64,000 bases of DNA from an uncultured Bacteroidota bacterium. Lineage in GTDB: Bacteria; Bacteroidota; Bacteroidia; Bacteroidales; F082. The stretch is taken from positions 64,486-128,485 of the forward strand of contig UQNO01000002.1 in NCBI GenBank assembly GCA_900542475.1. The letters are read 5' to 3'. Shown here piece after piece: positions 19,926 to 24,071 of the stretch (the stretch's first letter is position 1; each line of letters begins with the position of its first letter). The notes under the pieces are model-generated. The model had not been told where the DNA came from, searched no databases, and was given only the letters and a program-made list of their open reading frames with translations. The translations under genes were made by a program, and so were the position numbers.

Positions 19926-19998
19926 TGCCCAATGGTGTAATTGGCAACACGACTGACTCTGGATCAGTAAAGTCTAGGTTCGAACCCTGGTTGGGCAA
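19926..19998 (+). tRNA. tRNA-Gln (anticodon CTG)
   Basis: Manually folded. The acceptor stem is TGCCCAA/TTGGGCA, the anticodon stem is ACTGA/TCAGT with loop CTCTGGA, and GGTTCGAACCC forms the T-arm. Confidence 0.7.
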
Positions 19999-20551
19999 CA
20001 GAATAATCGCCATAACTTGTTAACATTGTTGAGGTTGTGGCGATTTTTTTGCTTCTTCAGAAAAAGAATGAGACAATCCGTTTTCCATTTTTTTGTTTCG
20101 ATTTTTGTAAAATAATACAATTAGCCGGCAAAATGTTGTTTGTCTTGCCAAAAACACCCGTAAAATCTTGCCCGATGTTTTTTTATGACATACTTTTGCA
20201 AAAAAAATTGACAATGAAGAAAAAAATTTCCATAGTATGAGCATTAGTCAAAAAAATGACTATATTTGCAGCGAGTTGGGGGAGAAATCCTGACTCGGCA
20301 AGAAAGGCATTCAGCAGTCCCAAGCTTTAAAATCGCCAATTAAAAAGTTACGAAGGACGAAGGCTAATGCTCACTTTTGTTTTGATTTCAACAGACTTTT
20401 GTCAAGTTGATAGAAACATGCGTGGGAATTTGTTTCTTCAGTTCATTTCGTAACAGGTGTTTGGCGATACCTAAAGTTTGATGGGCTGTAAAGAATCGAG
20501 TCTCACGCTTTTCTTGTATTAATTAAGGTAAAAAAACCGATTCGGTGGGAC

Positions 20552-20794
20552 TTGCGGAGCGTAAAACTATTAACTATGCTTTACAGAATCGCAGTAAAAT
20601 CGCCAAAGAACACAAACGGCGTCCGCATCGAGCGAGACATGTCGGTCGATGTGGTAACAAACAGTTTCGGCGACCCTGTTTCGACCAACGGCGGGCAGGT
20701 CGTGGCCGACGCTTTCATGAGAATTTACGGTATTGACATCAAAAAAGCTGGAGCTTTGAGCAGAGCTTGGCTGGATGTGGAAAGGATTGGATAA
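20552..20794 (+). CDS. Small hypothetical protein (80 aa; start uncertain)
   Basis: ORF only. GC is higher than in the downstream island. No recognisable domain. Confidence 0.25.
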   Translation: MRSVKLLTMLYRIAVKSPKNTNGVRIERDMSVDVVTNSFGDPVSTNGGQVVADAFMRIYGIDIKKAGALSRAWLDVERIG

Positions 20795-21362
20795 ATTTTT
20801 AATTATTAAAAATATGAATAATATGAATAATATGAATAATACGGACACTTATGTTCATTTTGCCAGAAACATAGAAAGATTTGTCGATGGAGCTCTGGAT
20901 GATGAAATTAAAAAGGCTATTAAACTCAAGGCTTTAATAGCAGGAATTGTTATGGCTGTTCCTTTATGGGGTTTAGAAGTAATTATTTATGCAATTTGTT
21001 TATGGGGTACATATAAAACAATATGTGATATAGGTCATGTCCCTTTTAGAGAAAATTTCTTCAAAAATGTATTATCGGGATTTATTATCAATTTGATAGT
21101 AACATTTATACTAGGACTGATAATGGATTTGATTCCTGTAATAGGATGGATTGCATCATTTGCGATAGGGTCTATATCATTATATTTAAGTGCTATGGGT
21201 TATGTAAAAGTATTAAAGCAATTCCATGGTAATAAACTTAGAACTAACGTGAACTTCAAAAAAGGATATGATAACATGAAAAAAAATGCATATTCCAGAG
21301 ATACAACTATTGATAAAGTCATTGATGGCACATCAAAATATATTGATAATGGAAATTATTGA
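20775..21362 (+). CDS. Hypothetical integral membrane protein (about 4 TM) at the boundary of the AT-rich island
   Basis: Hydrophobic segments are present. Alternative start at 20814 within a 3x ATGAATAAT tandem repeat (MNNMNNMNN). Confidence 0.5.
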   Translation: MWKGLDKFLIIKNMNNMNNMNNTDTYVHFARNIERFVDGALDDEIKKAIKLKALIAGIVMAVPLWGLEVIIYAICLWGTYKTICDIGHVPFRENFFKNVLSGFIINLIVTFILGLIMDLIPVIGWIASFAIGSISLYLSAMGYVKVLKQFHGNKLRTNVNFKKGYDNMKKNAYSRDTTIDKVIDGTSKYIDNGNY

Positions 21363-21460
21363 TAAGAATACAACTATTTAACAATATAGGAGAATTGCCG
21401 AAAATCCTTTAAAGAGTAGGCGTTTAACAGTTGTGCCCGACACAAATTAGGGTTAAAATA

Positions 21461-21607
21461 ATGGTACTTTCATATCAAAAACAGGATTATCAAGCACCAA
21501 AAATTTTTGGTGTTAAAGAAAACGAGATGACGCCAATGGCAGCAAATCGTTTCATGCCAGGGAATATGTGCTGCGTTTGCACGGGAATTGGCATGTCAAG
21601 GACTTAA
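21461..21607 (+). CDS. Candidate RiPP precursor peptide (48 aa, C-terminal Cys-rich core: MVLSYQKQDYQAPKIFGVKENEMTPMAANRFMPGNMCCVCTGIGMSRT)
   Basis: Hand-translated small ORF, absent from the track because it is under 60 aa. It lies 70 nt upstream of a radical SAM/SPASM gene on the same strand and has a CCVC cluster near the C-terminus. Confidence 0.55.
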   Translation: MVLSYQKQDYQAPKIFGVKENEMTPMAANRFMPGNMCCVCTGIGMSRT

Positions 21608-21676
21608 AACGTTATTAAATAACACAGAGACTGCGTAAAAAGTTTAGCAGTCTCTGTAAACTTTTTTATTAAAGTA

Positions 21677-23077
21677 ATGTATTATAAATTAAACAGTTTT
21701 GTGTTTGTCAGAAATGTCAATAATTATATGCAAATCATTGACAAACGAATTGATGATGAATTAATTGGTGACTTCAATTCTTATTTATTTGCCAAACATT
21801 TGGATTATGCTTTTAGGCATATTGATGTGATTACCGAGAAAATATGCATGGAATTTTTGGGGAATGTAGACTTTGGTGTTGTAAGAAGTGATACTATTCA
21901 TTTTTTGGACAGGTTAGTTGATTTTGGTTTGGTGACAAAAAGTCTCAAAACGGAATATGTTGATAATCATATAGATAACAAACCAATACGACACAATATT
22001 TTATTGCCCAAAGATGAATTAGAGAAGTTTCAATCGTTAAAAAGGCAAAATCCTTGCTTACAAAACATTGTGGTTGAAATAACACAAATATGCAATGAAA
22101 GATGTCTCCATTGTTATATACCACATGAGAACAAGAATTCTGTAATGTCCGACAAAGATTTTTATAAAATTGTTGATATGTGCAGTGAAATAAAAACCAT
22201 TGTCAATTTTAGGCTTACTGGTGGTGAATGTATGAGTCATCCTTCTTTTAAACATTATATAAAATATGTTAAAGAGAGAGGTTTTGCTTTGATTTTGCTG
22301 ACAAACTTAACATTATTAGATGATGATATAATTAAAATTTTGAAAACAGGAACATTGTCTCAGGTTCAAGTGTCTTTGTTCGCGCTTGATCCAAATGTTC
22401 ACGATAAAATCACAACAATACCCGGTTCTCTAAATAGGACTTTAAAAAATATAGAGAGATTAAAATCAGCAGGTATTCCTGTGACGATTGCCACACAAGC
22501 AATGGAAATCAACAAAAACAGTATTGATGGATTATATAAATACGCAAAACATAATGGTTTTGACTTGCGGTGCGACTGGACAATAATTGCAAAAGAAGAT
22601 AGAAATAATAATAATTTATCACATAGAATTTGCGATCTTACAACTTATAAAAATCTCTGTAAATTGAGATTAAAGTATATGGAGGGTTATAAAGACGATG
22701 TAAGCAAAGAGTTGTCAAGAACACCAAAATCGGAAATCACCCATCTATGTAATGCAGGAACAAATGGATTATACGTTGATACAAATTTGTTTGTTCATCC
22801 ATGTCCAGGTTGGGATTTGACGGTTGGAAATCTCAAACAAGAATCATTGTCTCATATTTGGAACTATTCCGAAAATTTGCAAAAGGTACGAGATGTTGTG
22901 TTGAAAGATTTCCCCAAATGTGTAAAATGCGACATCAGAAATCTTTGCTCAATTTGTATGGCACAAGCCGATTTGGAAAACACAGCACACGACTTTAAGT
23001 TTGAGATGCCAGAATATGTGTGTTCTATGTATAAAGTAATTTATGATACGATTCAAGACGAGGTATTTAAAGTCTGA
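21677..23077 (+). CDS. Radical SAM / SPASM-domain peptide-modifying enzyme (RiPP maturase-like)
   Basis: CNERCLHC (CxxxCxxC) 4Fe-4S motif. The C-terminal Cys clusters (CNAG...CPGW, CVKCDIRNLCSIC) are typical of a SPASM/twitch domain. An N-terminal extension of about 120 aa is consistent with a peptide-recognition domain. Confidence 0.85.
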   Translation: MYYKLNSFVFVRNVNNYMQIIDKRIDDELIGDFNSYLFAKHLDYAFRHIDVITEKICMEFLGNVDFGVVRSDTIHFLDRLVDFGLVTKSLKTEYVDNHIDNKPIRHNILLPKDELEKFQSLKRQNPCLQNIVVEITQICNERCLHCYIPHENKNSVMSDKDFYKIVDMCSEIKTIVNFRLTGGECMSHPSFKHYIKYVKERGFALILLTNLTLLDDDIIKILKTGTLSQVQVSLFALDPNVHDKITTIPGSLNRTLKNIERLKSAGIPVTIATQAMEINKNSIDGLYKYAKHNGFDLRCDWTIIAKEDRNNNNLSHRICDLTTYKNLCKLRLKYMEGYKDDVSKELSRTPKSEITHLCNAGTNGLYVDTNLFVHPCPGWDLTVGNLKQESLSHIWNYSENLQKVRDVVLKDFPKCVKCDIRNLCSICMAQADLENTAHDFKFEMPEYVCSMYKVIYDTIQDEVFKV

Positions 23078-23129
23078 TGAGTCAGTTTGCGGTGTTTATA
23101 ATTATTATAGTAACTTTAAATAATATATT

Positions 23130-23594
23130 ATGTCAAAAAATGTCAAAGAAAGCAAAGTTATTAAGGAACTTGATGGTAAATCCAGGCAAGAACAAATTGA
23201 AATCATCAAGAAACACGTGCAAAACAAGGACTACAAAAATCGACAATTTGAAACAATTACAAATGCTTTTGCAAACGATTCTGGTGTTTTAAAAATTATC
23301 ATTGATAGTTTAAGAATCTTAAAAACAACATCAGAGTTTATTGTTGATAAACATGAAAAAGCGTTTCAAAAGGCTTGTTCTGTAGCGGAAAAAGTTATTG
23401 ATAATCCCAATTCTACTGAAAAAGAGAGAGCAGATGCTATAAAACTTATCAATAAATGCTACGTAATGTTAACTGCTGTAAATGCAATAATCATAATAGC
23501 TATTTTGATTCCAATACTATTGTTAATAAGCATTTTGACAAGAGGTAATAACAATAATAATGTTGCTAACACTAACCCTACACCTAAAACATGA
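23130..23594 (+). CDS. Hypothetical protein with C-terminal TM helix and Asn-rich tail
   Basis: ORF in the AT-rich island directly after the rSAM gene. Single hydrophobic helix AVNAIIIIAILIPILLLISIL. Confidence 0.5.
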   Translation: MSKNVKESKVIKELDGKSRQEQIEIIKKHVQNKDYKNRQFETITNAFANDSGVLKIIIDSLRILKTTSEFIVDKHEKAFQKACSVAEKVIDNPNSTEKERADAIKLINKCYVMLTAVNAIIIIAILIPILLLISILTRGNNNNNVANTNPTPKT

Positions 23595-23711
23595 CCGCTC
23601 TTGTAGGAATCCTCAACAAGCGTGCTGCTGTTATTGCAGCCGATAGTGCCGTTACAATTACTCGTGGCGACAAGAATCCGCAGATGATGGAAAAGAGATA
23701 AAAGCGGCATC

Positions 23712-24071
23712 ATGAGAAAATCAACACTCCAGTTCGACCAACCCGCCCGTCGCGTCTATACCGCCACGAAAAATGCCGTTCAATCATGCGGCCAATTCAA
23801 GAAGATAGTATGCAACGATGACAATTTCACCGTCACGGCGAGGCATGGGATGAGCCTGTTTCCATTCGGTGAAAACATAACCATTCATGTTGTCGCCACA
23901 GGCACTCAGGAAACGGAGGTTCGCATTGAATCGAAATCTCGCATATTTCTTAACTTCATTAACGGCGGCGTAAACAAAAAGAACGTCCAGAGCCTCGAAG
24001 ACTTCATCCGCAACAGGGTATATAAACTTTGCAGCGACGAGGAAATAAAACTTAAAACGTTTAATAATTAG
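23712..24071 (+). CDS. Hypothetical protein
   Basis: 119-aa ORF with no recognised domain. Confidence 0.4.
   Translation: MRKSTLQFDQPARRVYTATKNAVQSCGQFKKIVCNDDNFTVTARHGMSLFPFGENITIHVVATGTQETEVRIESKSRIFLNFINGGVNKKNVQSLEDFIRNRVYKLCSDEEIKLKTFNN

Follow-up and report, generated by a model that had tools for sequence, protein, structure and literature searches.

Among the described radical S-adenosylmethionine (SAM) enzymes, SuiB, CteB and SkfB have a common layout of RRE (the recognition element for RiPPs, peptides that ribosomes make and that are modified after translation), radical SAM core and SPASM or Twitch domain, and SkfB and CteB form cysteine thioethers (PMC6231123). In this study, we performed a comparative analysis of a locus whose enzyme has the same domain layout as these three, located in a 64,000-nucleotide stretch of DNA (the window, taken at its full length) from an uncultured Bacteroidota bacterium of the order Bacteroidales (assembly GCA_900542475.1, contig UQNO01000002.1, positions 64,486 to 128,485 of the forward strand). 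A first-pass annotation had proposed that an unannotated small open reading frame (ORF) and the gene behind it form a candidate RiPP cassette of precursor and maturase. Our analyses supported this proposal: the peptide is conserved beside the enzyme, the nearest solved relatives of the enzyme are RiPP maturases, and its N-terminal domain is predicted to be RRE-like. Judged on this comparative evidence, the ORF and the enzyme very probably constitute a precursor-maturase pair, and the locus as a whole is likely to be a minimal two-gene cassette for a radical-SAM-modified ribosomal peptide (a RaS-RiPP). The features of the pair are as follows.

21461..21607, + strand: putative precursor peptide gene, 48 aa, from ORF call and translation; sequence MVLSYQKQDYQAPKIFGVKENEMTPMAANRFMPGNMCCVCTGIGMSRT
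21677..23077, + strand: putative radical SAM/SPASM peptide maturase gene, 466 aa, from ORF call, Pfam, relatives and fold
21677..21946, + strand: predicted N-terminal RRE-like (PqqD-like) domain, enzyme residues 1-90, from AlphaFold model, Foldseek and weak PqqD matches
22091..22114, + strand: CxxxCxxC radical SAM cluster motif (C139, C143, C146), invariant in 28 of 28 family members
22748..23023, + strand: SPASM domain, from Pfam and seven invariant cysteines

The SCIFF/thermocellin system (CteA plus CteB) resembles the window cassette in joining a short precursor that has a Cys-rich C-terminal core to an RRE-radical SAM-SPASM enzyme, and in comprising two genes with no dedicated exporter or peptidase. 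CteB matches the fold of the window enzyme over the full length, but the relationship is remote (profile E-value 3.5e-6, from residue 67); CteA has no detectable sequence similarity to the window precursor, the SCIFF core holds six cysteines against three here, and the hosts are clostridia, whereas the window cassette is found in diderm Bacteroidales and spirochaetes. SkfB and AlbA of Bacillus, like the window enzyme, are RRE-bearing and act on Cys-containing precursors, and the alignment to the AlbA model runs over almost the whole length. Genes for export, a protease and immunity are part of the skf and sbo-alb operons. In SkfB there is a Twitch domain carrying a single auxiliary cluster (PMC6231123), whereas the window enzyme has a full seven-Cys SPASM domain. 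The SuiB/streptide system shares with the window the three-domain layout, a possible linker cysteine of auxiliary cluster I and an aromatic residue in the substrate, but the K-x-x-x-W motif is absent from the window peptide. The streptide operon includes a transporter. The pyrroloquinoline quinone (PQQ) system likewise has a PqqD-like recognition domain, fused to the enzyme here, and a SPASM enzyme; it differs from the window cassette in that the peptide alignment has no conserved Glu-x3-Tyr, pqqB, pqqC and pqqF are absent, and the PqqE score lies under the cut-off. The start of the leader, aromatic-x-x-P-x-hydrophobic, may be PqqA-like; the PqqA sequence was not found in the text searched.

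Mined Bacteroidales RiPP clusters typically combine leaders carrying a GG motif with a peptidase-containing ABC transporter (PCAT) (PMC10352776). Like the window cassette, these clusters belong to Bacteroidales and set a short precursor next to a radical SAM/SPASM protein whose N-terminus is RRE-like; unlike them, the window cassette has neither the GG-motif leader nor the PCAT. Nothing specific to the peptide-enzyme family, to DUF6140 or to DUF805b was found in the literature searched. Many uncharacterised radical-SAM RiPP families exist, and our comparisons would make the window cassette a new family, with an unnamed precursor family, within the known RRE-dependent radical SAM/SPASM RiPP systems.

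The peptide gene and its family

A 48-codon ORF alone is little evidence of a gene here, where an 8.5-kb stretch is overlapped by 85 ORFs that are 30 aa or longer. The ORF at 21461-21607 on the + strand encodes exactly the 48-aa peptide quoted in the first-pass annotation; the order of the two genes and the enzyme length of 466 aa also agreed with that description, and the gap between the stop of the peptide gene and the start of the maturase gene is 69 nt, not the 70 nt given there. To extend the search for such pairs to other genomes, peptide and enzyme profiles were run against fetched loci. Among these, 34 close-family loci from metagenomes of Bacteroidales and Treponema/Spirochaetales offered 250 nt or more upstream of the enzyme gene, and 33 of them have a homologous small ORF directly upstream of that gene and in its orientation. 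In the sole exception (L009) the enzyme gene is truncated. A total of 20 distinct peptide sequences were recovered, and one locus (L007) carries two tandem copies. Searches of protein collections for peptide homologues yielded first 28 clusters and later, at 50% identity, 16 representatives, with lengths of 34-103 aa, none of them named beyond 'hypothetical protein'. Pairwise codon comparisons gave nonsynonymous divergence (pN) of 0.2-0.5 for the peptide gene against near-saturated synonymous divergence (pS) of 0.66-0.95, values much like those of the enzyme gene, and divergence of the peptide tracks that of the enzyme (r = 0.66; 55 non-independent pairs). In spirochaete loci, AGGAGG-type ribosome binding sites stand 6-9 nt ahead of the peptide ATG. 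Gene callers frequently skip the ORF or place an antisense ORF there. The codon comparisons indicate that the peptide gene is under purifying selection, and, because the ORF is kept beside the enzyme in 33 of 34 loci and appears to be so constrained, it is more than a chance reading frame; on this comparative evidence we regard it as a real, under-annotated gene.

Alignment of the family gave the pattern Y-x-x-P-x-x-x-G ... R-[Y/F/W]-x4-6-C-C-x-C-[T/S]-G-H-G-x-S-R, in which Y10, P13, G17, R30 and C38 are invariant, C37 is nearly invariant, and residue 31 (F31 in the window) is Y, F or W throughout. The core of the window peptide holds C37-C38 and C40, the C-terminal S-R-[G/A/T] is conserved, and the majority of peptides finish with C-C-x-C-[T/S]-[G/A]-H-G-x-S-R-[G/A/T]; variant cores include CCIKTNGSHC, CCMTTK, CSCMGRQSSSSRGA and CCVCSGHSGGWLK. 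The only invariant side chains of the core in the family are Cys, R30 and the aromatic residue.

Distant enzymes with 28-34% identity were found in metagenome-assembled genomes (MAGs) of Treponema, Lentisphaerae, Kiritimatiellae and Verrucomicrobia (loci L012-L060). The peptides near them begin with MAYKKPQIVAKS.. or MKFTEPKILAEN.., carry S-[Y/F]-[V/A]-A-G-C-P and then variable Cys-rich tails, and are sometimes tandem; examples lie at L046 4413-4559, L048 4797-4934 and 5066-5203, and L013 5808-5918. For these distant enzymes and their peptides, no NCBIfam model reached its cut-off. Because the starts of the distant peptides are similar to that of the window family and their Cys-containing cores are unrelated to it, the conserved N-terminal motif is best read as a leader and the variable C-terminus as a core. 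The distant peptides and the window family together look like a larger unnamed precursor superfamily with an aromatic-x-x-P leader start.

The radical SAM/SPASM enzyme

The first-pass annotation had described a radical SAM enzyme with a CxxxCxxC motif, C-terminal SPASM-type Cys clusters and an N-terminal extension of a size suited to precursor recognition, and each part of this description was borne out. The enzyme matches Pfam Radical_SAM (PF04055; E 2e-22, 80.5 bits against a cut-off of 29.5) with the cluster motif C139-x3-C143-x2-C146, and Pfam SPASM (PF13186; 31.5 bits against 21.5). Seven SPASM cysteines are invariant in the family (n = 28), namely C358, C376, C415, C418, C424, C427 and C449, arranged as C-x17-C ... 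C-x2-C-x5-C-x2-C ... C; the canonical SPASM spacing is C-x2-C-x5-C-x3-C. A GGEC motif is common to the 28 members as well. Linker cysteines are less strictly kept, C328 in 25 of 28 and C299 in 22 of 28, and C328 aligns close to the linker cysteine of SuiB.

About 130 residues stand ahead of the radical SAM core. An AlphaFold model built on the family alignment (mean predicted local distance difference test score, pLDDT, 89.8; predicted template modelling score, pTM, 0.88) folds residues 1-90 as beta strands followed by three helices (pLDDT ~90-95), an RRE-like arrangement, after which come a low-confidence linker to about residue 125, the barrel and the SPASM domain. Foldseek against the PDB ranked SuiB at the top (E 5e-18, at 14-15% sequence identity), then CteB, SkfB and TigE, all four of them enzymes that mature peptides, over ~480 columns with the N-terminal domain included; the anaerobic sulfatase maturase (anSME) aligned over only ~370 columns, covering core and SPASM and leaving the N-terminal domain uncovered. 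A profile search of PDB sequences returned SkfB at 1e-19, SuiB at 7e-8 (from residue 73) and CteB at 3.5e-6 (from residue 67), so that the SuiB and CteB matches begin inside the N-terminal domain. Hidden Markov model searches, in addition to the SPASM match above its cut-off, gave weak, below-threshold Pfam PqqD matches in 8 of 28 family members (best E 0.0047), and relatives at 30-34% identity spanning the whole enzyme carry PF05402.

No NCBIfam model of any maturase family reached its cut-off for the enzyme. The top scores were AhbD at 108.2 bits and NirJ2 at 95.8 bits, both against cut-offs of 500, followed among others by mycofactocin (68.8 against 265 bits), AlbA (63.2 against 850), SkfB (53.8 against 300) and PqqE (49.5 against 381); membership of the curated maturase families AlbA, SkfB, StsB and PapB was not found, at 50-63 bits against cut-offs of 300-850, and no anSME model was among the 25 best NCBIfam matches listed. 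By sequence and model, the enzyme is an RRE-bearing radical SAM/SPASM protein whose recognition-domain binding is predicted, and its grouping with RiPP maturases rather than with anaerobic sulfatase maturases is supported. SuiB, CteB and SkfB are its nearest solved relatives; the clustering with anSME-type, non-RiPP SPASM enzymes that the first-pass annotation had named as an argument against its proposal was therefore not observed, given the fold and profile ranking and the fact that no NCBIfam cut-off was reached.

Enzyme relatives at 40-97% identity are metagenome-derived sequences only. Their identifiable sources are animal gut and rumen, for example goat rumen and abomasum MAGs and pig-gut assemblies. 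Where a relative lies in a MAG, the label is Bacteroidales/Bacteroidia or Treponema/Spirochaetales.

Gene neighbourhood, mobility and transcript elements

The remaining features of the locus are listed below; L001, L078 and similar labels denote other loci used in the comparisons.

19926-19999: tRNA-Gln(CTG)
20552..20794, + strand: DUF6140 small protein gene (PF19637, E 4.8e-31)
20775..21362, + strand: multi-span membrane protein, 195-aa ORF, from hydropathy (several hydrophobic spans)
20795..23711, no strand: AT-rich variable segment, 31.5% GC, from GC content and comparison with L001
21387..21422, + strand: 5' leader element matching Rfam DUF805b (RF02914, an RNA motif and candidate cis-regulatory element) at 39.3 bits, where the gathering score is 35.6
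21624..21670, + strand: 11-bp hairpin (21624-21657) and then a U-rich tract, folding energy (dG) -22.2 kcal/mol, z -5.0
23130..23594, + strand: 154-aa ORFan with one C-terminal membrane span, from hydropathy; 4 protein clusters known
23712..24071, + strand: 119-aa gene, conserved right-hand flank of the variable segment; 82% identity to L001, 87-89% to L078-L080

GC content dips to 28-34% across ~20.8-23.6 kb and is 45-50% in both flanks. The start of the AT-rich block was therefore correctly placed in the first-pass annotation at 20.8 kb, and its end lies at ~23.6 kb by GC instead of at 24.3 kb. The segment 20795..23711 contains the cassette and lineage-specific cargo, bracketed by conserved flanking genes. 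It had been taken to lie directly downstream of the tRNA-Gln gene; the two do not adjoin, because a ~500-nt conserved non-coding element (20068-20584) and the DUF6140 gene (GC 50%) intervene. We rejected the tRNA as an integration site or the mark of a tRNA-targeted island, since neither att-like repeats of the tRNA 3' end nor an integrase was found at the window locus and no tRNA stands beside the cassette in 11 other loci.

Mobility of the cassette itself found support. In L001, the same DUF6140 and 119-aa flanks bracket a different AT-rich cargo, made up of the cassette, a P-loop GTPase-like gene and two others. Between the window and L078, DNA identity is 57-83% over both cassette genes and over the genes downstream; the enzymes share 69% protein identity and the peptide cores differ. 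The 154-aa gene (23119-23600 against L078 7450-7930) has 96-97% DNA identity, which points to very recent exchange of this gene alone between lineages. Supported by this mosaic structure and by presence in two phyla, the cassette would thus be a mobile accessory module of variable regions, so that of the horizontal acquisition first suggested, mobility was upheld and integration at tRNA-Gln was not. No copy of the cassette was found on viral contigs.

ORF clustering within 4 kb in ~45 loci revealed no recurrent exporter, peptidase or immunity candidate, in agreement with the earlier remark that no dedicated peptidase or ABC exporter is visible at the locus, and the unit is taken as two genes because no such partner is conserved. 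Hydropathy confirmed that the ORFs at 20775-21362 and 23130-23594 encode membrane proteins, as had been noted, but neither is conserved across lineages as part of the system. The 195-aa protein has no family match and no homologue in other loci, and was rejected as a conserved immunity or export partner as restricted to this lineage. The 154-aa protein was rejected in the same role as an ORFan (4 clusters) that stands, nearly identical, beside a different core peptide in L078; this pairing argues against a specific immunity protein. Genes seen beside the cassette at other loci encode PIN toxins, a serine recombinase, transposases, a vWA and PP2C pair, an 8xMP membrane protein and an LRAT/NlpC-P60 protein.

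Of the genes upstream of the cassette in Bacteroidales, DUF6140 recurs most often (8 loci); it may be functionally linked to the cassette or simply mark a shared insertion site. Copies of 72-76 aa lie at L001 532-780, L002 722-952 and L081 5470-5700, with identity to the window copy down to 42-44%; in the window, the probable start is ATG 20576, giving 72 aa. Downstream of the cassette in L001 (2955-4892) and L095 (1963-3901) lies a three-gene set. Its products are a 215-aa P-loop GTPase-like protein (weak PADLOC HEC-01A match, E 1.5e-6), a protein of 163 aa whose C-terminus holds a membrane span, and one of 259 aa; the set might represent an unrelated conflict module housed in the same variable segment. 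The true start codon of the 195-aa ORF is ambiguous because of a 9-nt tandem repeat, ATGAATAAT, present three times at 20801-20839, which begins the ORF with MNN-MNN-MNN. Translation more probably starts at ATG 20832, for a protein of 176 aa, and a 176-aa gene is called at L086.

A hairpin of 10-16 bp separates the peptide and enzyme genes in 12 of 12 other loci examined, with sequences unrelated among loci; the structure is conserved and the sequence is not. Stem-loops after the structural gene are common in lantibiotic and sactipeptide operons, where they raise the ratio of precursor to enzyme message, and the hairpin at 21624..21670 is probably a partial terminator or an RNA-stabilising stem. 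Upstream, the DUF805b motif ends 38 nt ahead of the peptide ATG; it recurs at L078 5680-5714, 42 nt upstream of the peptide, and L001, L002 and L081 show weaker forms of it (GGAGA..CCGAAA..GTAGG) ahead of their peptides. No DUF805 gene, the kind after which the motif is named, is present at the window locus despite the motif match, and the motif stands ahead of an unannotated peptide gene; therefore certain instances of the motif may lead small unannotated ORFs.

The ~500-nt apparently non-coding element at 20068-20584 is 77-79% identical to two copies in L078 (1253-1796 and 5095-5456), one upstream of a WG_beta_rep gene and the other upstream of the peptide. Within it, 20205-20575 folds as a long rod (dG -109.5 kcal/mol, z -5.5), and TACTTTTG near 20193 resembles the Bacteroides -7 promoter box. 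The element is without an Rfam match. It might be a promoter/leader cassette present in repeated copies, a structured RNA, or a repeat like a miniature inverted-repeat transposable element (MITE).

Proposed mechanism and alternative readings

We propose that the 48-aa precursor would be translated from its own small gene, behind a 5' leader motif that is conserved in Bacteroidales, and that the stem-loop 3' of the peptide gene would hold the peptide message above the enzyme message. The leader Y10-x-x-P13-x-x-x-G17 would dock as a strand on the RRE-like N-terminal domain; the CteA leader is bound to the CteB RRE as an added strand (PMC6231123). The radical SAM domain would cleave SAM and remove a hydrogen atom from the C-terminal peptide core R-[Y/F/W]-x4-6-C-C-x-C-[T/S]-G-H-G-x-S-R, and one or more intramolecular cross-links, of a type predicted with less assurance, would be closed with the two SPASM iron-sulfur clusters, the favoured bonds being thioethers of sactionine or ranthionine type from C37/C38 (and C40). 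Leader removal and export, if any, would depend on proteins encoded elsewhere, and the cassette would move horizontally among gut and rumen Bacteroidales and spirochaetes within variable AT-rich segments.

Thioethers are favoured because the Cys pair is the most conserved feature of the core and because SkfB and CteB are among the nearest relatives; the assignment is tentative, possible but somewhat short of probable. Several points weigh against the proposed scheme, and especially against this part of it. All support for the cassette is comparative; no curated NCBIfam cut-off was reached (best AhbD, 108 against 500 bits), and the type of cross-link cannot be read from sequence, as the first-pass annotation recognized in leaving the product class open. 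According to a review, it is all but impossible to predict which reaction an uncharacterised radical SAM enzyme carries out unless its identity to a known one is very high (PMC10288494). SuiB, the best fold match, makes a C-C bond. Auxiliary cluster I has an open site in the thioether formers CteB and SkfB (PMC6231123), but such a site cannot be claimed here because C328 (25 of 28) aligns near the SuiB linker cysteine, and we abandoned the argument from an open site to thioether chemistry, the near-conserved C299 and C328 leaving the ligation state uncertain. A simple sactionine model also leaves the strict Arg-aromatic dipeptide, with an aromatic residue always after R30, unaccounted for. In addition, that no gene for an exporter, a peptidase or immunity is conserved would be unusual if the product were a bacteriocin secreted by diderm bacteria, and the cassette departs from the GG-leader plus PCAT pattern of Bacteroidales RiPP clusters (PMC10352776).

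The same pair might instead form a C-C bond (cyclophane or streptide-like) or another cross-link onto the aromatic F31, with the cysteines serving as donors, disulfide partners or metal ligands. An aromatic residue of any of three kinds after R30 is the pattern expected if any aromatic ring accepts the radical, the best structural match is the Lys-Trp C-C cross-linker SuiB, and C328, near the SuiB linker cysteine that completes auxiliary cluster I, suggests full ligation, as in non-thioether enzymes (PMC6231123). We nevertheless consider this rather unlikely, though a serious alternative: the spacing from the aromatic residue to the Cys pair varies from 4 to 6 residues, Gly often stands two positions past the aromatic residue and a three-residue cyclophane pattern is ruled out, and the thioether former SkfB is the best sequence match among solved structures. 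A different question is what the product does. It is rather doubtful that it is an intracellular or signalling peptide, like that of the clostridial two-gene SCIFF system, or a peptide-derived cofactor, as in PQQ and mycofactocin, instead of a secreted antibiotic, although the two conserved genes come with no exporter, peptidase or immunity gene, the RRE is PqqD-like and the leader start may resemble that of PqqA; for a cofactor, further tailoring enzymes are absent, the PqqE (49.5 against 381 bits) and mycofactocin (68.8 against 265 bits) scores fall far under their cut-offs, and the patchy mosaic distribution, variable regions and swapped cores fit an accessory competition trait better. A secreted antimicrobial role is itself rather unlikely.

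Readings that dispense with a RiPP product fare worse. Neighbours elsewhere (the GTPase-like gene with its weak HEC-01A match, 8xMP, LRAT/NlpC-P60, PIN toxins, vWA plus PP2C, the recombinase and transposases), together with the AT-rich, variable character of the segment, could suggest that the cassette belongs to an anti-phage or conflict system, but none of these neighbours recurs across lineages, PADLOC matches the enzyme only to viperins, through their generic radical SAM core, no copy was found on viral contigs, and bacteriocin genes typically sit in variable regions too; we hold this reading to be very improbable. It is extremely improbable that the small ORF arose by chance in AT-rich DNA beside a non-RiPP SPASM enzyme (anaerobic sulfatase maturase or heme/AhbD-type), since 33 of 34 loci conserve it, purifying selection appears to act on it and ribosome binding sites precede it. 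AhbD and NirJ2 do head the NCBIfam ranking, but their 96-108 bits fall short of the cut-offs of 500; the anSME fold matches well over core and SPASM, but its alignments of ~370 columns omit the N-terminal domain and the peptide is without the C/S-x-P/A-x-R sulfatase motif. The tendency of gene callers to overlook the ORF, or to report one on the opposite strand, would also fit a chance ORF.

Returning to the two-gene RaS-RiPP cassette, its patchy, mosaic distribution and the diversity of its cores suggest an accessory competition or signalling trait, and an antagonistic or signalling peptide is our guess at its role. A bolder version, which we think quite unlikely, would make it a new class of RiPPs from diderm anaerobes of gut and rumen. 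Two genes would by themselves install an undescribed cross-link, for example from the Cys pair to the Arg-aromatic dipeptide, and the product would act with no dedicated export or processing genes. The RiPPs of Bacteroidales and spirochaetes are barely explored. The cassette, missed by gene callers and without a name in any of the databases searched, shows that short precursor genes are systematically under-annotated. Its two genes form a small unit that is simple to clone, come with about 20 natural variants of the core and occur in metagenomes from pig gut, rumen and other animal guts. They give practical access to what may be a new radical-SAM cross-link and bear on the use of such peptides by diderm gut anaerobes.

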